Shown here in pieces: positions 886 through 47,566 of a stretch of DNA of 64,000 nt. Below the pieces are notes generated by a model. It saw only the letters and a program-made list of their open reading frames with translations. It had not been told where the DNA came from and did not search any database. Origin of the DNA: an uncultured Candidatus Saccharibacteria bacterium (GTDB taxonomy: Bacteria > Patescibacteriota > Minisyncoccia > SW-4-49-11). Position numbers and translations under genes: made by a program. The stretch covers positions 20,711 to 84,710 of the forward strand of contig CAZWIJ010000007.1 of NCBI GenBank assembly GCA_964633865.1, written 5' to 3'. Within the stretch, counting starts at the first letter, position 1. The number at the start of each line of letters is the position of its first letter.

Positions 886-2103
886 TTAATCAACTAAACT
901 CCTGTCCCTAATATTTTTAGGGGCTTTTTTTATTATAAATAAACCAATTAATACAATCATAAATAAAACAGCCAGATCATTTTTCCAAAAGACAGTATCA
1001 AACAATCCATAAATCAAAATACTTGCAAAAGAAATATTTAACCAAAGTATATTTTTATTACTCAATAGACTATAAATTGACTTTTTAATAATTAAACCTA
1101 ACCAAATTATTCCTAATATTCCTGTATGAAACCAAAAGGCTAGATATAAATTATGGGGTTCAGGTACCAACCACTCAAAAGGGGGGAAATATTTTTTAGG
1201 CACTTCTCTTTCATAATTAGATTGAAAATCTGCCAACCCATACCCAAGAATAGGTTGCTCTTTAATTAAACTCAAAGTAGTATCCCAAATTTGAATTCTT
1301 GTTGTAATAGAATTTCTTTTTTCTAAATCGAATAAATTTTGAAATTTTGAGGTTCTGGATTGCCAAGATATAAATCCTATTAAGACTAATATTATGATTG
1401 AAAAACTAATCGTAATTTTTTTAATATTCATCTTTTTTGATGAGACAAATATCATTACAAAATATATAAAAAAACCTGATATCATTGCTAAGATTGATAT
1501 ATAAGATTGTGTTATAATATTTCCTAAAATTAAAAATCCTGTAATAAAATAATTTATTTTTTGATTCTTCGTAAAATTAATATATAAACTTAAAAAAATA
1601 ATTGGAGTCAAGTACATTCCAATATAGTTAGCAAAACCACCCTGACTAACAGCAGGATCAAGTCCTAGATTATACAGTGCTACTGGCCTAAAATCTTGCC
1701 TAAATCCCGCTAATAAGACTTGCATCATACTGATTCCACTAATATATAAGCCTGAAATAATTAAACCCTTTATAAAGCCATCATATAACTTTTGATTATT
1801 AATAAAAATCATCCCTAATATTAATGGGATTATAAAAAATGATTTCCAAATTCCAAGAGAATCCAAAGTTTGATTTGTGTTTATAAGTCCTATAAATGAA
1901 ATTATTCCAAATATCCAAAAGATATAGTTATTACTAAAAGTCTTCCAAAGTTTTGATACTCCTCCAAATTTATTTTTTAAAAGCCAAATTAGAATAAATA
2001 TTATAGCCAAAATTTCAAATAAATTGGTTGGGATAAAAAAAACTTTAAATCGAATAACATACAACGGCAATACTAGAGCTAAAATAAAGGCTAGTTTTTT
2101 CAT
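886..2103 (-). CDS. Polytopic membrane protein, O-antigen ligase/polymerase-like (Wzy_C/RfaL-type).
   Basis: About 10 predicted hydrophobic segments with a large periplasmic-type loop. Similar architecture to 3989..5179 and 27452..28708. Confidence 0.45.
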   Translation of the reverse strand: MKKLAFILALVLPLYVIRFKVFFIPTNLFEILAIIFILIWLLKNKFGGVSKLWKTFSNNYIFWIFGIISFIGLINTNQTLDSLGIWKSFFIIPLILGMIFINNQKLYDGFIKGLIISGLYISGISMMQVLLAGFRQDFRPVALYNLGLDPAVSQGGFANYIGMYLTPIIFLSLYINFTKNQKINYFITGFLILGNIITQSYISILAMISGFFIYFVMIFVSSKKMNIKKITISFSIIILVLIGFISWQSRTSKFQNLFDLEKRNSITTRIQIWDTTLSLIKEQPILGYGLADFQSNYEREVPKKYFPPFEWLVPEPHNLYLAFWFHTGILGIIWLGLIIKKSIYSLLSNKNILWLNISFASILIYGLFDTVFWKNDLAVLFMIVLIGLFIIKKAPKNIRDRSLVD

Positions 2104-2208
2104 ACTAAAATTAAAGATTATATTTATTTTTATTATACTATATTTATTTGTAATAAAAAAGTTAGTTAAAGTAATCTAACTAACTTATGTTAAAATTAAT
2201 CTCTAAAA

Positions 2209-2937
2209 CTATAGATTTTTAAGATGGGAGTGATCATTAATAGAAATCGGGTACCAACCTTCTTGTGTAAATTTAAACTCACAAATTCCAGTATTAGCTA
2301 GTTCAAATCTATAAATAAATCTGTCACTAAATCCTAAGATATAGTGAAGCATACACTTTATAGTAATCCCATGAGAAAAAATTAAAATCAATTTTTCTTT
2401 ATCATCTTGTAAAAATTTAGGGTTATACAAGATTTGATCTTCAAACCAATTAGAAATTCTTCTTTCTACCATTCTTTGAGATTCTCCATTAGGTGGAGTG
2501 AAAATATAACCAAGAGTATTCATTAATCTTAATTGTTTATCTGTATAAACTTGACTTCTTAATTCTCCTTCCCAATCTCCTGCACTAAATTCTTTCAAAT
2601 CTTCTATTATTTCTATATCTAAATTTAGATTAGACTCTTTTAGAACAATTTCTGCCGTCTTTTTAGCTCTTATAAATGGAGAAGAAAAGACAGCAAAAGG
2701 TTTTACATTTTCTTTTTTTAACCTTTTCCCTAAATATATACATTGTTTTTTCCCAATTTCTGATAGGTTGCTCTTTGGAGATTGTCCTGCAATTCTAGAT
2801 GAATCTTGATTAACAATACTTTCTCCATGTCTTATGAACAAAACTCTAATATTTGGTACTTGCATATTTTTGTAGATTAAGGTATAATTTTTACTAGTTA
2901 TATTTTGTAATTGGGAACATTTTAAATAAGTTCTCAA
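2209..2937 (-). CDS. Histidine phosphatase family protein (phosphoglycerate mutase-like).
   Basis: An N-terminal RHGES motif (LFIRHGESIVNQD) and a downstream conserved His (SHGITI). Confidence 0.7.
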   Translation of the reverse strand: MRTYLKCSQLQNITSKNYTLIYKNMQVPNIRVLFIRHGESIVNQDSSRIAGQSPKSNLSEIGKKQCIYLGKRLKKENVKPFAVFSSPFIRAKKTAEIVLKESNLNLDIEIIEDLKEFSAGDWEGELRSQVYTDKQLRLMNTLGYIFTPPNGESQRMVERRISNWFEDQILYNPKFLQDDKEKLILIFSHGITIKCMLHYILGFSDRFIYRFELANTGICEFKFTQEGWYPISINDHSHLKNL

Positions 2938-3022
2938 TTTTTTATTACCTTACTGTAAAGAATAGAATAACTTAGTAGCATTATCTATTATCCATTCTCT
3001 TTTATTTACTAAGTTAAATTTT

Positions 3023-3832
3023 TTAGATATATAAAGAGTTGTCTAAACATCTTATCATTGTAGGATAAATAAATAGACTAAGGAAATAATTACAATCTAA
3101 TTTTCTACTAAAATTTTCAATTAAATTCATTACCTCATTTGTATATTTATAATCTGGACTTGCAAAAACAAAGAACCATGTATATATCATAGCAACAAAA
3201 GGTGATTCAACTACATTAATCCCTAGTTGAGGGTCAATAAATAAAAATTTATCATCTTTATTTATTAAAATATTGCCAAAATGAAAGTCACCATGTTCTT
3301 CTATTACTTTTATTGATTCAGGTGGATTACTTAAAAGATTAGAAACTTCTTCGATTAAAGGATATTCGCAACTATATGTTTCAGACAACTTATTCAAAAC
3401 TTTTATCCCCATTTCCCAAGGATTTCTGTTTAAAATTGTAAAATTTTGTGAAACAATCTTTCTTTGATTTATCCAATTTACTAAAAATTCTAGGTATTCT
3501 TATAAATACATCAAACCCCTTTTGGGGTTGTTGATTAATATTTCTCCTAAAGAAATTCCTCCATCTTCAATAAATATAAGTCTCTCATTGAGTAAAGGAA
3601 CACTAATAAATTTAGGTGTTTCTAAACCTATCTGATTTAGTCTTTTTAATCCAATATGTTCAATTCGAGATGGTTTATTTATGCCTATTTCTAAACCAGA
3701 ATATTTTATATATAACCCCCCAAATTTGAATACACATTCATTAATTTTCTCTATTTTCATGCTAAACCTCTCACGATAAGGATAACTATCAAAATGTACT
3801 ATCATAAAATAATTTATGATTACAGAATTCAT
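3023..3832 (-). pseudogene. APH/choline-kinase-like phosphotransferase interrupted by one in-frame TAA (at 3500..3502).
   Basis: ORFs 3500..3832 and 3023..3412 are in the same frame. The 87 nt between them contain no other stop. The C-terminal part carries the kinase motif HGDFHFGNILI...FIDPQLG. Confidence 0.6.
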
Positions 3833-3988
3833 TATATCATATTTTTATATTATTAATTAAAGTTTTTTTCACTTAAAATTTATATTTTTGTAGATTGAAT
3901 CATTAAATTCAACAAGAAGATTATTAACCTAAATTTAAATTTGTTGTGTTTATATAGTGTCTAAACATATTTTTTGAATTTTTTCATA

Positions 3989-5179
3989 TTAAATTGCAAA
4001 TAAAAAGATTATAAATAAAAGAATATGTGGAAAGAAAATACTATTTACAAACATAGAATGTACCAAAATTAAAGCTATTCCAGAGATTGAAGCCAATGTC
4101 ATTGCTTTTTCTATTTTTAGTTTAGTTTCTAAAAATTTTTGAATCCAATCTAAAATTTTGCTAAATATCATTGAAATAAAAATTCCAAGCCCAATAATTC
4201 CACCTGTTAACCAAAGAGTCAATAAACTACTATCTCTTCCAGAAGCTGAGTTAAGGGAAGATTCTTTGATAGTCTGATATTTGATTGTATTATAACCTAT
4301 TCCTAAAATTGGTTTTTTTTCTATATCTTGTATTGTATCTAGCCAATTTTGGATTCTTAAGGAGGCTGTAACATCTACAGTGATGATTCCCATAACTCTT
4401 TCCTGTAAACGAGAATTAGATGAAATACCTATACTCATCAAAATCATCATAATAATCAAAGTTTTTTTTGAATAAAACAATGTCAAGACTGACATACCAA
4501 TAACAAAAGCTAATAATGCACTCCTAGAATAAGTTAGAAACAAAGCTATGAATATAATAGCACTGCCTGATAACCAAAATATAATTTGTTTTTTATTTTT
4601 TTTCCAATCCTCATCTTTGAGAGAAACTAAAACTCTTGACAATACCACCAATAAAGATAATCCAAGGAATCCACCTAAAAAATTTGGATCATACCAAGTT
4701 GAAAGCAATCTTCCTTGATGTGGATCCCAGCCATATTGTGCCATAAAAGAAAAATCTGGGAATAGTATTAATTGTAAGAATCCTAAAATAGAAAGAATAA
4801 CTCCTGTATAAAAAAAACTATTCCATATCCAAATCAAACCTTTTTCTCTATTTTTATCCAAAAAATCTATTACTGGAATAATAAAAGTTAAATAACTAAA
4901 TAATCTTAACCAATACAGAAAGGCTCCAATTTCTCCACTCGAAGAAATAATAAAACTCATGTTAAACAATAGACTAGCTAAAAGATAAAAAATAAAAATA
5001 AATAACCAAACCAAAATTGGAGCAAAAGGAATTTCTTCTTTTCTAATAATTTTATTTAAAAAATATATTCCTAGAATTCCAATCAAAACAAAATCTGTAG
5101 CTACTCCTAAACTACCAAATCTTGTAATTTGACCTGTAATTACAGTTATTATTAAGATTATAAATAGAATTTTTTGCAT
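3989..5179 (-). CDS. Polytopic membrane protein, O-antigen ligase-like.
   Basis: Multi-TM profile with a Wzy_C-like loop region (YSRSALLAFVIGM). Confidence 0.4.
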   Translation of the reverse strand: MQKILFIILIITVITGQITRFGSLGVATDFVLIGILGIYFLNKIIRKEEIPFAPILVWLFIFIFYLLASLLFNMSFIISSSGEIGAFLYWLRLFSYLTFIIPVIDFLDKNREKGLIWIWNSFFYTGVILSILGFLQLILFPDFSFMAQYGWDPHQGRLLSTWYDPNFLGGFLGLSLLVVLSRVLVSLKDEDWKKNKKQIIFWLSGSAIIFIALFLTYSRSALLAFVIGMSVLTLFYSKKTLIIMMILMSIGISSNSRLQERVMGIITVDVTASLRIQNWLDTIQDIEKKPILGIGYNTIKYQTIKESSLNSASGRDSSLLTLWLTGGIIGLGIFISMIFSKILDWIQKFLETKLKIEKAMTLASISGIALILVHSMFVNSIFFPHILLFIIFLFAI

Positions 5180-5288
5180 AAGTAATTTAAATTCTTTCCT
5201 TTATTCTAACAAAAAATTTTTATATTAGCAATTAAAACAAAAAAACATAGTTTTTTATCACTATGCTTTTTTATAGATAGTAAATTAT

Positions 5289-7520
5289 TTATTTTCTACT
5301 ATCCTCTAATTTTTGATTTAATTTAGCAATATTTTCTCTCTTAGAAACTAGTTCTTGATCAGGCTCATAATTTAGAATTTCAGAAGATGATTCTTTAATA
5401 ATTTTAGTTATATTATCAAAAGATGTATCATTAATACCTTCTAATTTTTGTTGAATATATTTAGGAAGTTGTTTATATTTTTTAGATAATTCCTCTCTAA
5501 TAGATGTTGCCTCTTGCCATTTTTGTACTTCTTTATTTAATTCTTCTTTTAATTCTATATATTTTTGTTTTTCTGAATTTACAGTATTTTGTAATTCTTT
5601 CAAACGATTAATCTCCTTATTATTTCTCAAAAGAATAAATTTTTTACTTTCAGTATCTATATCCTTTGAAAGTTTGTTCATTACATTATCAAAATCACTT
5701 ACTTCACCAAATTTACCACTTCCTACTTTGGCAGAGAGTTCAGAAGAGATTTTATCTATCTCAGATATTAAAGAGTCTCTTTTAGCCCAATCCCACTGTA
5801 AATTAAATTCCCCATCTTTAAAGCTATATTTATCATTTACTGATTCTAGTGTTTTTATAAGATTAGTATCAGCCTGTCCTTGTTCTAATGCTCTTTTATA
5901 AGACATCATAGTCTGATCTAGGTTATCCAGATTTCTATATTCTTCTGAGTCTTTAGCTTCACGGATTTGATCAGCTATGTTGCTAGTTTCTTTTTCCTTA
6001 TAAATACGACTCTCTCTTGATATTATTTGATCTATTGATTTTTTTTCTTCCTCTTGACTTCTCAAATAAAATTCATCATTTTTTTGTTTATCAAATTTAG
6101 TTTCAACTGATTTATTAAATATTTCTTGATACTGTGGGTATGATTGTAAAACATCTTCCAAATTAGAATCTTTATTAATCCAGAATGCTAATTCTTTTAA
6201 TTGAGGATCATTTGATTCAGTCAAATATACCAATCTGGCTTGTCCTGTTAATTTTAATGCTTTATTGATTGTTTTCGAATCAGGATTTAATTCTTGTAAT
6301 TGAATTAACTTATCACCTATATCATTGCTTAAAGCTTCTGAGACATCACCATCTTCCATTTTATAATTTCCTAACACATAATCTGATGTATTTCTAAACA
6401 TTTTTTTTGATATTGAGTCTTTCATTGACTCATCTTTTGCTTTATCACTTGCTTCAAATAGTGTCTGTATATATTTATTCCCTTCATCCAAACCATAAAT
6501 ACTATAAATGTCAGCAATATTTTTTTCACTAAAGAGTTCTTTTGGATTATCAAGTAAATTCTGTAATTCTTTATCTAAAATCACTTTATTATCATATATT
6601 TCTGCTTCACTTCCTATATATTTTGATTCTAATTCTTTGATATTCTCTTTAAGTTTTTCTAACTCTTCTTTTCTAGCATTATCTATCATTTGTTCAGTTT
6701 CTTCATTGAATAACTCTATATTCTTCTGACTTTCTTCTATATTTGAGTTAAGTTCAATAACTTTATTCTCTAATTTAGGATATGCTGATACAAACTCATC
6801 TACAGACATACCTGGAAATCGAGTCATTGCTTCCTCAATCTTAGAATTTAAAATGCCTTTTTGCTCTTTACTTGATTCAAATTTTTTATTTAGATTCTGT
6901 AACTCTAAAGATCTTTCTTGTGTAATTTGTTCTGCAATTCCCAAAGATGGATTATTTTCTAAATTTTGTAAAGATTCTTTTAATTCAGCGATAATTTCTC
7001 CTTGTTTTGATAATCCAGTTTCATCAGAAATTTCAAAGTCAGGAATTTTTTCTGATTCAATAACTTCAGAAGAATCTTCTATTAAGGAATCTATTGTGTC
7101 ATCCTCTAAATTCTTGGTAGTAACTTGTTCTGATTTTATATTATTAAGTGCACCATCTATTAAAGAGTCAAAATCATCTTCTTCATCATCTAGAAATTCT
7201 TCAAATCTTTCATCAGATGATGTATTTGCTTCTTCTTGTGAAGAAATCTCTTTCATTTTATCTTCAATCACAGATATTATACTAGTATACAGTTCTTTTT
7301 CCCCACCTTCATCTGATTCATCTAAACCATCTAAAATTACTTTATATTCTTCAAGACTTTTTTGAAGTTTATTTTTTTCATCATTAAGCTTAATTAATTT
7401 TTCTTTTTTATTATTTTCTTCTTCTTGTAAATTATCTATTTTCTTTACTTCTGACTCAGGATTAGTTTGTATCTTTTCTGATTGATTTGATTCATATGAG
7501 TTATTTTCAATATTATTCAT
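5289..7520 (-). CDS. Large acidic, low-complexity coiled-coil protein (E/K/N/S-rich), 743 aa.
   Basis: Long uninterrupted ORF with heptad-like E/K/L periodicity. The internal plus-strand ORFs (5674..5901, 6508..6729, 6853..7365) are shadow ORFs. Confidence 0.5.
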   Translation of the reverse strand: MNNIENNSYESNQSEKIQTNPESEVKKIDNLQEEENNKKEKLIKLNDEKNKLQKSLEEYKVILDGLDESDEGGEKELYTSIISVIEDKMKEISSQEEANTSSDERFEEFLDDEEDDFDSLIDGALNNIKSEQVTTKNLEDDTIDSLIEDSSEVIESEKIPDFEISDETGLSKQGEIIAELKESLQNLENNPSLGIAEQITQERSLELQNLNKKFESSKEQKGILNSKIEEAMTRFPGMSVDEFVSAYPKLENKVIELNSNIEESQKNIELFNEETEQMIDNARKEELEKLKENIKELESKYIGSEAEIYDNKVILDKELQNLLDNPKELFSEKNIADIYSIYGLDEGNKYIQTLFEASDKAKDESMKDSISKKMFRNTSDYVLGNYKMEDGDVSEALSNDIGDKLIQLQELNPDSKTINKALKLTGQARLVYLTESNDPQLKELAFWINKDSNLEDVLQSYPQYQEIFNKSVETKFDKQKNDEFYLRSQEEEKKSIDQIISRESRIYKEKETSNIADQIREAKDSEEYRNLDNLDQTMMSYKRALEQGQADTNLIKTLESVNDKYSFKDGEFNLQWDWAKRDSLISEIDKISSELSAKVGSGKFGEVSDFDNVMNKLSKDIDTESKKFILLRNNKEINRLKELQNTVNSEKQKYIELKEELNKEVQKWQEATSIREELSKKYKQLPKYIQQKLEGINDTSFDNITKIIKESSSEILNYEPDQELVSKRENIAKLNQKLEDSRK

Positions 7521-7642
7521 ATTATATTTTTTTAATAGTATATATATATGTTAACATAGTATATATACTTGTCAATCAAATCTAAAAAGTTAATGTTAAT
7601 AAAAAAGATTATATTTTAAAAATATAATCTAAACATTCTTAT

Positions 7643-8167
7643 CTACTTGTTGATCACTTTTTTAATAAAATTTAATCTTTCTTCTAATGTGCCTTTTACT
7701 ACAAAATGTGGTAATTTAAAATTATCTATCAAGAATTTAATACTATCATCAACTTCAACTTGAGTTTCTTTACTTGCTCTACCTATTTCTGATTGATAAT
7801 TAAATTCTATAGGAAGATAAAATAAATAATCATATCCAAAAGTGATTTTTTTAGCTGATTCCATAAGCTTTCCCATATCTATTAAAGATGACCTAGAATA
7901 CAGAACTGTGTAAGCAAGAAAGTCTATAATAGACCGGTCAGTCACAAAATTACTATATTTACTTTCTTCTAAAATTTCAAGATTAAAAAGATTTTTCTGA
8001 TGAATCCACCTTTCATCTTTAGTAAGTATTTCAAAGTTTTCAATGTTATTTGATTTATAATAATTTCTAGAAATATTAGTAATCAAATCTAAATTTAAAT
8101 CTTCTGACAACTTTTTAGCTAAAGTTGTCTTCCCAGTACCATGTGAACCTGTGAATGCTATTTTCAT
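7643..8167 (-). CDS. P-loop NTPase (AAA_28/NadR-Ttd14-like small ATPase or kinase).
   Basis: Walker A motif GSHGTGKTTLA at the N-terminus. Confidence 0.6.
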   Translation of the reverse strand: MKIAFTGSHGTGKTTLAKKLSEDLNLDLITNISRNYYKSNNIENFEILTKDERWIHQKNLFNLEILEESKYSNFVTDRSIIDFLAYTVLYSRSSLIDMGKLMESAKKITFGYDYLFYLPIEFNYQSEIGRASKETQVEVDDSIKFLIDNFKLPHFVVKGTLEERLNFIKKVINK

Positions 8168-8236
8168 AATAATGAAATCTTTATGAATGAACTTTGGATC
8201 AACTATATTATATCATACTTTATTTAATAATAATTC

Positions 8237-8737
8237 TTATTTTAAAAATTTCATTACATCAAATTTAAGTGGCTTTTTCCATTGAAAGAAAGCAAATGTC
8301 AGTAAAGAGGCACCTAATAGCTCAAAACTTTCTTCAAATAATACCATCACATTATATTCTTCTCTAGATAATTTTTCAGTTGTTGCATAACCTTCTATAA
8401 ATAATACACTTAGAAATAAAGTTGTACCTAAAAAAATCATAAATGAAGATAATTTATTATATTTGTAATTTTTTATCAAATGAATTAGTTCATAAATTAA
8501 AAAAGGTACACTAAATAAAATCAAAAAGATAGCATATAATACCCATATTGCTCCCTCATAACCGTAACTTTCTGCCCAAATTTTTAGATTATAAGCCATT
8601 CCAGGAAAAAAATGATTAGCATATTCTGGAAAATCTTCATGAATCATAATTATTTCATCTAATCCTATATAAATAAAAATTATACCAGAGATCCAAAAAA
8701 ACCATTTATTATATTTATCAATATATGACTTATACAA
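8237..8737 (-). CDS. Small integral membrane protein, unknown function.
   Basis: Four or five hydrophobic helices and no recognisable motif. Confidence 0.35.
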   Translation of the reverse strand: MYKSYIDKYNKWFFWISGIIFIYIGLDEIIMIHEDFPEYANHFFPGMAYNLKIWAESYGYEGAIWVLYAIFLILFSVPFLIYELIHLIKNYKYNKLSSFMIFLGTTLFLSVLFIEGYATTEKLSREEYNVMVLFEESFELLGASLLTFAFFQWKKPLKFDVMKFLK

Positions 8738-8996
8738 TAAATATACTCCAAAAACTATTAATTTGACAGATTGATAAAAAGTTGGTAAATTTCTTTCTTG
8801 ATCAAGATCATAGTATGTATTAAGCTCACTAAAATTTATATGTAAAAATACTATAAATGAATCTATTAATAAAAGAAATATTATAACCTTAAATTTTATA
8901 AAAAAACTATACAGAATACTTTATTTAACCATTATATCTTTAGTAATTAGAATATATGATAACAAAAAAAACATATTTTGTCCATATGAGGAGCAA

Positions 8997-9776
8997 TTAT
9001 CTATCTCTTTCTTTTTTAGAAATAGCTAAAGTACCATAAGTCATAAAAACTATAATCATTACTACTATAATTAAAACATCAATCCAAATAGGAAAAATTG
9101 TTATAAACTCCTTAACCTCAGGAGTATTCCTATAAAAAGCATTTCTAAACAAATCCACAACATAAGTTAATGGAACTAATCTAGATGGAATCAATAAATA
9201 TAAAGGTAAATCTTTTATAGGAGTAAAGACACCTGCTAAGAAAAACTGAGGAAATATAAATAAAGGAAAGACTCTATTGATATTTTGACTATCATCTGCA
9301 AATGAAATAATTAATAATCCAAAAGCTCCTCCTAAAATCGTAACCAATATAATAATTGGAATAAATATAAGAATATCCATAAATGAATATGTAACTCCAA
9401 TTAATAATCCTATTAATAAAATCATTAAACCCTGTATAAATCCTACAAATCCTTCTCCAATAATTTTACCGATTAAAATTGATACTCTAGCTATCGGTGC
9501 TACAAAAAACTCTTGTGTTAAATCTTGTTCCCTATCTTGAACCAAAGAGATTATACCCTGAGCCACAGTCTGAAAAATAGTTTGTCCCAAAACTCCCACA
9601 AAGGTAAATATCATAAAGTCATAAGGAGTCTGTACATTTGCCTTAAAGCTTCCTCCTAAAACAACTATAAAAATTACTGGAAAAATAAGTGATATCAAAA
9701 CTCTACTTGGATTTTTGATATATTTTGTAATATCCCTGTAGGCAATAGCCGAAATAGCATTGATTTGATTTGTCAT
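8997..9776 (-). CDS. ABC-2 type transporter permease.
   Basis: Six TM segments, located immediately downstream of the ABC ATPase, typical operon arrangement. Confidence 0.65.
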   Translation of the reverse strand: MTNQINAISAIAYRDITKYIKNPSRVLISLIFPVIFIVVLGGSFKANVQTPYDFMIFTFVGVLGQTIFQTVAQGIISLVQDREQDLTQEFFVAPIARVSILIGKIIGEGFVGFIQGLMILLIGLLIGVTYSFMDILIFIPIIILVTILGGAFGLLIISFADDSQNINRVFPLFIFPQFFLAGVFTPIKDLPLYLLIPSRLVPLTYVVDLFRNAFYRNTPEVKEFITIFPIWIDVLIIVVMIIVFMTYGTLAISKKERDR

Positions 9777-44584: not shown

Positions 44585-44810
44585 TACTTTTTCTAAAATA
44601 AAAGGTTCAAATTTATTTTAATATTAATATTCAAATAAGTCAAGTAAAAACAAAAATTCATAAAGATAGGTAGAAATTATTAAGAAATAAGATATAAGCA
44701 AAGAATACAGTATTATTTCAAATGTATCAATATTTGTTGACTAAATTAAAGAAATATCTCAAACAAAAAACCGAGTAAATTAATACTCGGTATAATATTT
44801 TACTAGAATT

Positions 44811-45587
44811 TTATTCTATTTTATCTTCCCCAAATTTTTGGATGAACAAATTTTTAGTTTCCTCAGAAAGTTTTGAGTCGAGGTAAATTGTAAACCCAAC
44901 ATAATCAGGTAAATTCCCTTTGAATGATTCAAGAGACCTTAAATCTAAATCCCCCCCAACATGTTTAGGAAAATCTCCCTCATATGATTCAAGAGACCTT
45001 AAATTTAAATACCCTCCAACATGTTTAGGAAAATCTCCCTCATATGATTCAAGAGATTCTAAATTTAAACTCGCCCTAACATGTTTAGGAAAATCTCCCT
45101 CATATGATTTAAGAGATCTTAAATCTAAATCCCCCAAATGATAAACAATATCTCCAGATAAAGCTTCTTCTTTAGTAAAGCTAATCTGGTTTGGGTTACA
45201 TCCAAAAATGAAAACAAGATCTGTTCTTTTAGTATTTTCATCTTTAGAATCTAAAATCTCCTGTAGTCTAGGATCTCTCCCATAACCAAAGCCTTGAATC
45301 TTATTATCAATCTCATAAAGAAATCTCAATTCATCTTTATTAAGAGAAATTTTATTCTCCCATTTTTCATAAATTTGAGTTAGAAGTTTCATATCCGAGG
45401 CTTGTTTTTGGTATTCATCCGCAACAGAGCCAAATTCCTTAAATTTTTCTTCCAGTACAGGAAGAATATAAGGATCAAGGTTTTGCTTAGGAGCAATACC
45501 TCTTGGATTACATATTGGAAATGGTGATACAGTACTTTTCGTTCTTGTTTTGAAAACACAAGAATTTACTGTACCATCTTCACTCAT
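44811..45587 (-). CDS. Repeat protein with 20-aa LRR-like units (L-x-L-x-S-L-E-S-Y-E-G-D-F-P-K-H-V-G-G), paralog of 46133..46957.
   Basis: Four or five tandem 20-aa units. Conserved N-terminal block ...IFGCNPNQIS... and C-terminal ...ETKNLFIQKFG. Terminator CCGAGTA-AATTAA-TACTCGG at about 44768..44800. Confidence 0.5.
   Translation of the reverse strand: MSEDGTVNSCVFKTRTKSTVSPFPICNPRGIAPKQNLDPYILPVLEEKFKEFGSVADEYQKQASDMKLLTQIYEKWENKISLNKDELRFLYEIDNKIQGFGYGRDPRLQEILDSKDENTKRTDLVFIFGCNPNQISFTKEEALSGDIVYHLGDLDLRSLKSYEGDFPKHVRASLNLESLESYEGDFPKHVGGYLNLRSLESYEGDFPKHVGGDLDLRSLESFKGNLPDYVGFTIYLDSKLSEETKNLFIQKFGEDKIE
44911..45140. repeat. Near-identical 60-bp tandem DNA repeats (about 3.8 units) inside 44811..45587.
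   Basis: Units beginning AAGAGACCTTAAAT... at 44931, 44991, 45051 and 45111 differ by only a few substitutions. Confidence 0.8.
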
Positions 45588-45641
45588 TTCTTTTTATAAT
45601 TGCCCCATTTTGATAATGGAGAATAAAATCCAAACCTTAAC

Positions 45642-46010
45642 TCAAATAGGATAATTCGCATCAAGACAAGTTAGATAGTCTAACCAAGCCTGAAGGCTAT
45701 TAAATTGATCCTCAATAATCTGAGAATTTTTCTTGGTGATAAACTCTTTAGTTATTGGGATCTTACCATGACCTTGCTCAAATAAAATATCTTGTTCCAA
45801 TTTATAAGTTGAATAGGGGATATTCTCTGATTTGATAATATAAGTTTGGATAAATTCTTTTTGAAAATCTTCTTGATTCCAGATAGAAGAAATTTTTTCT
45901 ACAAAATTACTAATTCGGATAATAGGATCTTTGTGATCACTAAAACGAATAATTAACTCTTCTTCTGCAATAGATTTATTCCAGTCATATAAAAATTTAG
46001 CGAAACTCAT
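45642..46010 (-). CDS. Hypothetical protein (122 aa) inside the LRR-paralog locus.
   Basis: Own promoter (TTGACA at 46060..46065, 17-nt spacer, TATAAT at 46037..46042) nearly identical to the promoter of 46133..46957. Confidence 0.35.
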   Translation of the reverse strand: MSFAKFLYDWNKSIAEEELIIRFSDHKDPIIRISNFVEKISSIWNQEDFQKEFIQTYIIKSENIPYSTYKLEQDILFEQGHGKIPITKEFITKKNSQIIEDQFNSLQAWLDYLTCLDANYPI

Positions 46011-46132
46011 AGTTTTACCTGATAAAGTGCGAGTTCATTATATAATAATCTTATGTTTTTGTCAAGTTTTAATGACAAAAAGAAATATATTCCCAAACAA
46101 AAAACCGAGTAATTTAATACTCGGAATATATT

Positions 46133-46957
46133 TTAATTGAAGACTACTTTATCACCAAATTTTTGAATGAATAAATTTTTAGTTTCCTCGGAAAGTTTTG
46201 AGTTGAGAAAAATAAAATTATAGACATAATCAGGAAGATTACCTTGAAATGACATTAGATTTCGTAAATATAAACAATCACCAATATGCTTAGGAAGATC
46301 ACTTTTGAGGAATGAAATAGAGTCTAAAATTAAACTTGACCCAACATACTTAGGTAAATTGCCTTCGAAATATTGAAGAGATCTTAAATCTAAATCACTT
46401 CCAATGTATTCAGGGAAATTACTTTCGAAAAAGTCAAAATCAAAACATCCTAAATCTAAATCTAAATCTAAATCATACCCAACATACTTAGGTAAATTAC
46501 CTTTCATAAATCGAAGGGCTGGCAAACTTAAATGCAAGCCAACATATTCAGGTAAGTTACCTTTGAATGATTCAAGATAATTTAGATATACCTCTCCACA
46601 AACATATTTGGGTAAATTACCTTCGAATAATTCCAGCTCACGTAAAACTAAATCTCCCCAATGATAAACAATCTCACCAGAGATAGCTTCATCGTTAGTC
46701 AAGCTAATCTGGTTTGGATTACATCCAAAAATGTAACTCAAACCTGTTCTTTTAACATCCTCATCTTTAGAATTTAAAATTTCATTTATTGTTAGATCTT
46801 TTATATATCCAAAACCTTTAATTTTTTTCTCATACATTAAAATTAATTCTTTATTTCTTTCAAAAGAAAAGTTAGTTCTCAATCTAAAATAAATCTCAGT
46901 CAATAATTTAATATCAGAAGATTCTTCTTTGTAATTTAGACAAAACTCAGATTTCAT
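46133..46957 (-). CDS. LRR-like 20-aa-repeat protein, paralog of 44811..45587, with more diverged repeats.
   Basis: Shared N-terminal block and ...ETKNLFIQKFGD C-terminus. Duplicated promoter module at 46970..47030 and terminator module at 46095..46125. Confidence 0.5.
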   Translation of the reverse strand: MKSEFCLNYKEESSDIKLLTEIYFRLRTNFSFERNKELILMYEKKIKGFGYIKDLTINEILNSKDEDVKRTGLSYIFGCNPNQISLTNDEAISGEIVYHWGDLVLRELELFEGNLPKYVCGEVYLNYLESFKGNLPEYVGLHLSLPALRFMKGNLPKYVGYDLDLDLDLGCFDFDFFESNFPEYIGSDLDLRSLQYFEGNLPKYVGSSLILDSISFLKSDLPKHIGDCLYLRNLMSFQGNLPDYVYNFIFLNSKLSEETKNLFIQKFGDKVVFN

Positions 46958-47079
46958 AATCTTTGACTTTGGTAAAGTGCGAATTTATTATATAATAATC
47001 TTATATTTTTGTCAAGTTTTAATGACAGAAAAATAAAAAATCCCAATAATAAACTGAGACTTTTTATAATTTCATTGAT

Positions 47080-47517
47080 TTATATTTTTTTCAAAACTTC
47101 TTTGCTAACTAAATCATCGTAATTTTTGGAAAGAATTTTTTCTAAGTCGTCAAGACCCGCATAATCCTTATGCTTTAAAAAAGCAAATACAACATCAGGT
47201 AATTTTTTTTGTTTAGTATCAATCAAAGTAAATGCTGTGTCTACTCTTTTCTCTGGATCCATATCTAGAAACCAATCTGAATTATGTTTCTTTTTTTCTA
47301 AATTAGGTTTGGCTTCAGTTATTACTTGATCATTGTTTAGAATCTCTAAGGCATCTTGTCTAGCTTGCTCTATTTCTTTTTGAACATTTTCTGAATTTAT
47401 AGACATCTGTTCATTAGATATAATTTTTTTCTTAGATTGTAATTCTAAATTGGGAGATTCTTTCTCGTTGGAATCAGAAGTTGTTTCAATAGTTTTACCA
47501 AAATTAAATTCGGACAT
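47080..47517 (-). CDS. Hypothetical protein (145 aa).
   Basis: ORF track only. Confidence 0.3.
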   Translation of the reverse strand: MSEFNFGKTIETTSDSNEKESPNLELQSKKKIISNEQMSINSENVQKEIEQARQDALEILNNDQVITEAKPNLEKKKHNSDWFLDMDPEKRVDTAFTLIDTKQKKLPDVVFAFLKHKDYAGLDDLEKILSKNYDDLVSKEVLKKI

Positions 47518-47566
47518 ATTATTTAAATTTAGTCAATAAATTATAATAATTCTATCATAAAATTAA

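Follow-up and report, generated by a model that had tools for sequence, protein, structure and literature searches.

Leucine-rich repeats (LRRs) are repeats of 20-30 amino acids (aa) with a conserved LxxLxLxx(N/C)xL segment, and pentapeptide-repeat β-helices consist of 20-residue coils, each made of four A(D/N)LXX pentads whose residues i and i-2 point inward. At the DNA level, variable-number tandem repeats have alleles that differ by whole units only. Here we describe a pair of repeat genes that can be compared with each of these, found in a 64,000-nucleotide stretch (the window, with a G+C content of about 25%) of contig CAZWIJ010000007.1 from an uncultured Candidatus Saccharibacteria bacterium. 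The genomes of the candidate phyla radiation, to which it belongs, are small and largely unannotated, and a full-text search of the literature for LRR or repeat proteins in Patescibacteria gave nothing relevant. The IF-2 protein encoded in the window has 67% identity to its closest matches and 60% to the nearest named one, from Candidatus Paceibacteria, which likewise suggests a patescibacterial source. The two genes, A (258 aa, 44811..45587) and B (274 aa, 46133..46957), are both on the minus strand, and judged from their sequences they are truncated members of a large family of unannotated proteins. Between them is an open reading frame (ORF) of 122 aa, ORF122 (45642..46010, minus strand), which is the N-terminal piece of the ancestral gene of A and shares its frame. 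This family membership, ORF122, the two in-frame nonsense codons ahead of A and the internal 408-bp deletion described below are all additions to an initial annotation of the locus. Our preferred reading, to which we give a probability of roughly 0.55, is that this duplicated and truncated gene pair has been kept as a set of stand-alone, fast-evolving, putative binding modules.

The family was defined with a profile built from A, B and related sequences, which was searched against 1.84 billion representative proteins. It comprises at least 2,651 clusters when grouped at 50% identity (E ≤ 1e-3; 471 at E ≤ 1e-30) and 2,290 when grouped at 90%. With B alone, a word-indexed search picked up just 20 relatives. 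The best profile matches are mostly proteins of 600-900 aa in which the matched part starts near residue 300-400. The full-length architecture consists of a conserved N-terminal region of ~350-400 aa, a short helical cap and a series of LRR-like repeats of 20-22 aa, as exemplified by P0127 (610 aa) and P0021 (1139 aa), both annotated as 'hypothetical protein'. The named members, which all carry this same annotation, come mostly from Patescibacteria (Parcubacteria, Falkowbacteria, Uhrbacteria, Paceibacterota and Dojkabacteria). Pfam, NCBIfam, PADLOC and PHROGs were scanned with A, B and ORF122 as well as several full-length family members, and no match passed its threshold; A, B, P0127 and P0021 had no match to the PADLOC anti-phage defence or PHROGs profiles at E ≤ 0.01. 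Recurrent matches to HNH_5, Glutaredoxin2_C, Thr_synth_N and MoeA_C were short, induced by the repeats and below the cut-offs, and were discarded. The genes around P0127 are housekeeping genes, and do not suggest an operon.

The N-terminal region of the family has an invariant core, comprising in P0127 numbering W293-C294, G308, Y313-Y314, P325-R326, G341 and Q346. This core was not found in A, B or ORF122. What A and B share with the full-length proteins is the cap, with its motifs FLYEID-KI-GFGY and IFGC-P-QIS-T-EAL-G-I-YH-GDL, the repeats, and the C-terminal cap. They differ from them in what is missing, this being family residues ~200-335 in the first window copy (ORF122 plus A) and residues ~10-365 in B, and in the length of the unit, which is 20 aa in the window and usually 22 aa in the family (LxSLTSAEGLxLPxSIGGxLxL).

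The history of the first copy can be read by comparison with two related copies. One is the orthologous locus of a related lineage (L019), whose flanks are 91-94% identical to those of the window and whose own first copy has a 287-bp frameshifting deletion. The other, found on contigs L020-L022, is in a different gene neighbourhood, and has a frame of 652 codons that is continuous except for one TAG. On L020 this copy is near full length (6498-8456). It has a LytR_cpsA_psr gene on one side and OMP decarboxylase genes on the other, and its DNA shares 84-86% identity with the copy in the window. The lesions differ between the window, L019 and L020 copies, and every one of them is in the N-terminal part.

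Translated in a single frame from 46010 to 44811, the minus strand of the window reads ...DANYPI, stop, VKVWILFSIIKMGQL, stop, KEMSEDG..., with two stops interrupting the combined frame of ORF122 and A. The first, a TGA at 45642..45644, ends ORF122 at a position where relatives have TGG, encoding a conserved Trp. The second, a TAA at 45594..45596, replaces a Glu codon, which is GAG in L019 and GAA in L020. Recoding of the TGA as Trp was considered and rejected, since TGA ends 5 of the 47 long ORFs in the window and the TAA comes only 16 codons later. A three-way DNA alignment with L019 and L020 further locates the scar of an in-frame 408-bp deletion at 45500..45509 on the minus strand; in the undeleted copies the missing segment is bounded by a 10-nt direct repeat, AATCCAAGAG. 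This deletion took out the core motifs W-C, GDFYVYYS and PRxAIRM that are invariant in the family. The comparison with P0127 describes the same event at the protein level: its residues 76-200 and 336-575 match the window, the latter at 45515-44859 (tblastn of P0127 against A, 5.9e-50), and residues 201-335 have no counterpart there. ORF122 matches residues 5-138 of a 490-aa ORF on another contig (L011; BLASTP 4e-12) and columns 42-145 of the family profile (hhalign probability 98.8%, E 1.1e-16). ORF122 and gene A together make up a single old frame, which the two nonsense codons and the 408-bp deletion have disrupted. Gene A is its C-terminal remnant, in which a leftover N-terminal stretch and the helical cap are followed by four repeats of 20 aa and a cap helix at the C-terminus.

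Gene B has been shortened in a different way. It keeps the original family start and promoter and has lost nearly all of the N-terminal domain, so that the family start is followed by ~55 residues predicted with low confidence, the helical cap, eight repeat units and the C-terminal cap helix. It aligns to columns 362-630 of the profile of a 32-member family alignment (hhalign probability 99.8%, E 1.4e-27; tblastn of P0127 against B, 1.1e-28). B and its L019 ortholog have in common a large deletion that fuses the first few codons to the region just before the cap.

The arrangement of the locus points to a tandem duplication. In order from 47053 down to 44765, the minus strand carries a promoter, gene B, a terminator, a second promoter, ORF122, gene A and a second terminator. 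The initial annotation had proposed a segmental duplication of two paralogous genes with recurring TTGACA-17-TATAAT promoter and terminator blocks, and each element of this holds up. A and B are 43% identical paralogs (BLASTP 2e-63). An 84-nt block occurs at 46020-46103 and again, 85% identical, at 46970-47053, each copy containing a promoter that matches the consensus at 12 of 12 positions (46065->46037 and 47015->46987, minus strand). The second of these is upstream of B; the first is upstream of ORF122 rather than directly of A, and should drive both, because there is no terminator between them. An intrinsic terminator follows A at 44765..44791 on the minus strand (a CCGAGTA-TTAATT-TACTCGG hairpin and then TTTTTT), and a second copy of this hairpin and T-run follows B at 46099..46124, the 38-nt blocks around the two being 92% identical. 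The promoter and terminator blocks each occur in two places across the whole window, where none would be expected by chance. Given that ORF122 is a fragment of the ancestral gene of A, the duplicated units are therefore promoter-ORF122-A-terminator and promoter-B-terminator. A tblastn search with P0127 found no further copies of the family in the window, and an Rfam scan of the window gave only two tRNAs, with no RNA element at the locus. The earlier statement that signal peptides are absent also stands, no hydrophobic N-terminal segment being visible when the sequences of A and B are read directly; this absence is the observation behind the suggestion, made in the initial annotation, that the proteins may be cytoplasmic scaffolds or effectors.

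The repeats of A are encoded by four 60-bp units on the minus strand (45131-45072, 45071-45012, 45011-44952 and 44951-44892); Tandem Repeats Finder reports a 60-bp period at 44924..45135, with 3.5 copies and 88% matches. All four units were initially described as almost identical. This is true of units 1-3, which share 51-54 of 60 nt (85-90%), and is not true of unit 4, which shares 40-45. The longest exact run shared among units is 41 nt. The repeat region of B (46217..46654, minus strand) is more diverged than that of A, and includes one irregular unit of 26 aa which holds a (GATTTA)n / CTAAAT microsatellite, at about 46450-46474, coding for (Asp-Leu)n. Two independent contigs, L004 and L007, both break at 46439 in the B array, a few bases from this microsatellite. 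Aligned over 34 units, drawn from five genes, the repeats have the consensus xLxLxSLxS[FY]xGx[FL]Pxx[VI]GG, in which L2, L4, L7, G12, P15 and V18 are near-invariant and positions 1, 3, 5, 8 and 20 are hypervariable, with entropies of 2.5-3.0 bits.

The AlphaFold2 model of B has regular 20-residue coils, each with three short strands, and helical caps at both ends. The predicted local distance difference test score (pLDDT) is 82-97 over the regular repeats and 42-49 in the irregular unit. The model is in line with the proposed solenoid. Whether the repeats are LRRs is a separate question; the LRR-like 20-aa period and the predicted solenoid of the initial annotation are supported. The best Foldseek matches of B in the PDB are the LRR domains of SspH1, IpaH, YopM and LIC10831, with E ≥ 0.098. 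In searches of the profile against PDB sequences, the matches to LRR regions are weak, being to a plant resistance-protein chain (8yn1_C, E 0.008) and to SlrP (E 0.012-0.35). The 34-unit consensus does not contain the LRR segment: it has no conserved Asn or Cys, and its spacing is LxLxxL. Pfam gives no LRR match for A or B at E ≤ 1; LRR_14 appears below threshold in 5 of 32 full-length relatives (best E 1.9e-4). An LRR-like solenoid is a fair description of the predicted fold, and membership of the LRR superfamily is weakly supported. A pentapeptide-repeat β-helix was rejected, since hydrophobic residues at positions 2, 4, 7, 10, 14 and 18 break the 2,3,2,3 spacing; pentapeptide matches were limited to a Foldseek hit at E 4.9 and a sub-threshold Pentapeptide_3 match on L014, a contig whose repeats are of another type and whose 690-aa ORF scores 14.5 bits against LRR_5 (cut-off 27.7).

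Our proposed explanation is that the locus is a tandem duplication of one family gene, together with its promoter and terminator. Copy 1 is interrupted by the two nonsense codons and has lost its N-terminal core to the deletion between 10-nt direct repeats, and copy 2 has lost nearly everything between the original start and the helical cap. The products would be two short proteins without a signal peptide, each consisting of the cap, four or eight coils and the C-terminal cap helix. Whole coils are removed in frame by recombination or slippage between stretches of 13-41 nt that are identical among the 60-bp units, giving rise to length alleles across populations. We infer that both proteins remain in use, as protein-binding modules that act on their own and in which the variable face (positions 1, 3, 5, 8 and 20) and the number of coils change fast. 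They might act as adaptors, or as competitors for the targets of their full-length relatives.

The main rival to this explanation is plain decay, in which both copies are pseudogene remnants in a reduced genome, their open frames, promoters and terminators have simply not yet been damaged, and the length alleles are neutral. The ratio of nonsynonymous to synonymous divergence (dN/dS) was measured against the L019 lineage, and for the neighbouring glycosyltransferase gene (Pfam PMT_2) against L018. The neighbours are well conserved, with dN/dS of 0.07 for the glycosyltransferase (dS 0.19), 0.10 for MutL (dS 0.23) and 0.16 for a NUDIX gene (dS 0.12). The corresponding values are 0.22-0.29 in the linker of A, 0.53 in its repeats and about 0.6 in B. 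Decay would account for these higher ratios, for the disruption of copy 1, for the independent lesions of the related copies, and for the value of 0.81 (pooled) at the five variable positions of the unit. It accounts less well for where the damage lies. All six lesions are in the N-terminal part and none is in the repeat part, and dN/dS falls to 0.42 at the 15 other positions of the unit (scaffold and less variable), the scaffold residues being conserved. Moreover, the truncation seen in B is common to the L019 lineage, and both copies are still open at a dS of about 0.3-0.45. Neutral simulations, using the observed number of differences and the base composition of the window, predict that the ORFs should have been lost, since the frame of A stayed open in only 0.14% of runs and that of B in 0.02% (P 0.0002-0.0014). 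Both promoters retain a perfect consensus, and a tandem array of ten short forms is present in another organism (L023).

A number of observations weigh against our own explanation, and several of them count in favour of decay. The dN of A and B is 0.18-0.27, compared to 0.01-0.02 in the neighbours, a difference of 10-20 times, and a dN/dS of up to 0.6 indicates relaxed constraint. Some of this divergence may reflect the shuffling of intact units, or gene conversion among them, and because these processes cannot create stops, the neutral simulation overstates selection. The start of gene A is an internal Met, two codons past the stop, and lacks a clear ribosome-binding site. The first 55 residues of B have a pLDDT of 34-48, as expected for vestigial sequence, and the structural matches to LRR domains are not significant. 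No partner, export signal or conserved gene neighbourhood was found that hints at a role for them. Nonetheless, the open ORFs, the conserved scaffold and the recurrence of short forms favour a fold that is still constrained, with its surface free to vary, over decay alone, although the constraint is weak. We regard decay as possible, and somewhat doubtful.

It is worth describing the L023 array in its own right. It occupies positions 1168-9576 (ENA ERZ21830300, ctg657540l) and consists of ten short-form paralogs of 233-303 aa, arranged head to tail on one strand. Each has the cap and repeats and is without the N-terminal domain. The array adjoins a gene for an nSTAND-like NTPase and parB, and is in effect a far larger version of the gene pair in the window.

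Evidence that the repeats vary in number comes from other records of the window locus, namely nine contigs with identical flanks, which stem from several samples and more than one assembly source. The initial annotation had expected copy-number variability, and this is found in both genes. Gene A is 258 aa on most of these contigs, 238 aa on three (P0166, with one unit gone) and 218 aa on one (L009), corresponding to 4, 3 and 2 units, and gene B is 274, 234 (L003) or 228 aa (L002), corresponding to 8, 6 and 6 units. Compared to the window, the shorter alleles have deletions of 120, 138 and 120 bp, each lying between exact direct repeats, which are 32, 22 and 13 nt long respectively; the 32-nt repeats flank the 120 bp missing from A in L009. 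There are no point differences and every deletion is in frame. The alleles of A and B differ by whole units, as in a variable-number tandem repeat. There is no sign of on/off switching, since the 60-, 120- and 138-bp changes all keep the frame and both promoters have the optimal 17-nt spacer. One further variant of A, also of 258 aa (P0167, on a single JGI contig), has LRSLVLFKWYLPDYVG in place of LRSLESFKGNLPDYVG in unit 4, which fits either a compensated double frameshift or a sequencing error.

All of the variant alleles come from short-read metagenome assemblies, which raises the possibility that the population is uniform and that the assemblers collapsed near-identical 60-bp units. The exact runs of 32 and 22 nt at two of the junctions could mislead a small k-mer, and two contigs break inside B. 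The third junction has only 13 exact nt, and the smallest k-mers of assemblers are assumed to be longer than this. Furthermore, the variants come from different samples and assembly sources (ENA k141_ contigs and a JGI assembly), the 238-aa allele was recovered three times, every variant is exactly in frame and otherwise identical, and the number of units also differs in the L019 orthologs (6 and 6) and in the L020 copy (at least 11). An assembly artefact is therefore unlikely, and on account of the short junction, the differing sources and the repeated allele we take the variation between populations as real.

A third alternative, that A and B are size-variable surface or secreted proteins facing a host cell or phages, comparable to the size-variable repeat surface proteins of other small-genome bacteria and exported without a classical signal, is one that we consider improbable: fast evolution, in-frame length variation, a hypervariable face, the joining of the N-terminal module to repeats of the ankyrin or BspA-like type in metagenome-assembled genomes (those of Vampirovibrionia among them), and the host-attached life that candidate-phyla-radiation bacteria are thought to lead would all suit it, but no signal peptide, lipobox, transmembrane segment or anchor is present in A, B or the full-length relatives read at their N-terminus (with the sole exception of P0055), and no secretion genes were found nearby.

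The N-terminal region that the gene pair lacks is found more widely. When a genome collection was scanned with a single protein, the matches in other phyla were confined to the N-terminal and linker module, and this conserved module is also present in metagenome-assembled genomes of Gammaproteobacteria and Vampirovibrionia. It is joined to BspA-like or pentapeptide-like repeats in an uncultured bacterium (L014:6933-9005) and to ankyrin repeats in a Vampirovibrionia metagenome-assembled genome (L017:6546-9236). Since the module is found with several types of repeat, the repeat domain looks exchangeable. The AlphaFold2 model of a full-length member has a pLDDT of 88.6, and gave no significant Foldseek match in the PDB or in BFVD (predicted viral structures). 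A possible likeness to the PcfJ-like domain (PF14284) was tested; it applies solely to the N-terminal core that the ancestral gene had and that A and B do not have. The family core EG..LEWCTA...GDFYVYYS...PRxAIRM...I.EVRG aligns in the expected register on EGSILRHCVG...IVFIRR...YFTLEY...VIQIQG of PcfJ from plasmid pCF10, with an hhalign probability of 0.19 and E of 0.32, which is not significant. Two phage 'PcfJ-like' models appeared in the BFVD fold search, again not significantly (Foldseek E 0.5-1), and hmmscan gave no match to this domain at E ≤ 1 in any of 32 family members.

One could imagine a two-part system, widespread in candidate-phyla-radiation bacteria, in which a constant and possibly catalytic N-terminal Trp-Cys domain is aimed by exchangeable, fast-evolving repeats (LRR-like here, ankyrin or BspA-like in other lineages), and the short forms (A, B and the L023 array) provide a diversified, binding-only repertoire for host or phage recognition, with the number of coils and the hypervariable face setting its specificity. 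We offer this as speculation that is unlikely to be correct; to our knowledge, no variable-receptor-like system of this kind has been described in these bacteria.

Some further observations concern the family and the surroundings of the locus. P0172 (575 aa, on one JGI contig) has a PilT-like N-terminal segment in frame with the family core, cap and repeats, and is either a real fusion made by deletion or the product of a chimeric contig. The unannotated 5' end of EBPR podovirus 1 (L026:1-735, JF412294.1) codes for near-identical 22-aa repeats, LPTSIGGSLxLSGCDLTGIT, that are 45% identical to those of the family (E 6e-11); from this resemblance, the repeat type occurs in a high-G+C phage too. 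Directly upstream of B in the window is a gene for a 145-aa protein rich in Lys, Glu and Ser (47080-47517, minus strand), with a Tubby_C_like score of 25.6 bits against a Pfam threshold of 24.4. Its conservation extends to the L019 lineage (dN/dS 0.23), and a separate promoter for it at 47577->47549 matches the consensus at 11 of 12 positions. A 36-nt inverted repeat with 78% complementarity (44725-44760 / 47513-47548) encloses the block from this gene through B, ORF122 and A, and may be a chance product of AT-rich DNA.

The locus presents a multi-domain gene that has been reduced to its repeat domain in three independent ways within a reduced genome, with the remnant ORFs still open, and with in-frame repeat-number alleles segregating between populations. 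It also exposes a very large family that has no model in Pfam or NCBIfam, and this is a more valuable lead than the locus itself, which is of moderate interest. Being common and equipped with a swappable, putative binding domain, the family is a sensible starting point in the search for functions in host interaction or defence.

In comparison with the systems described at the outset, the repeat protein resembles the LRRs of IpaH, SspH and YopM, with which it shares the unit of 20-22 aa, the Leu-Pro pair in the middle of the unit, the x-L-x-L-x strand and a predicted solenoid capped by helices. It differs from them in that the LxxLxLxxN segment, the Asn ladder, the type III secretion context and the NEL ligase domain are all missing here. 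At the level of DNA, the repeats resemble in-frame variable-number tandem repeats, having near-identical units whose length is divisible by three, alleles that differ by whole units, and short exact repeats flanking the deletions. Compared to classical contingency loci, the locus has no frameshift switching and no evidence of surface exposure, and its units are less identical to each other, at 85-90%.

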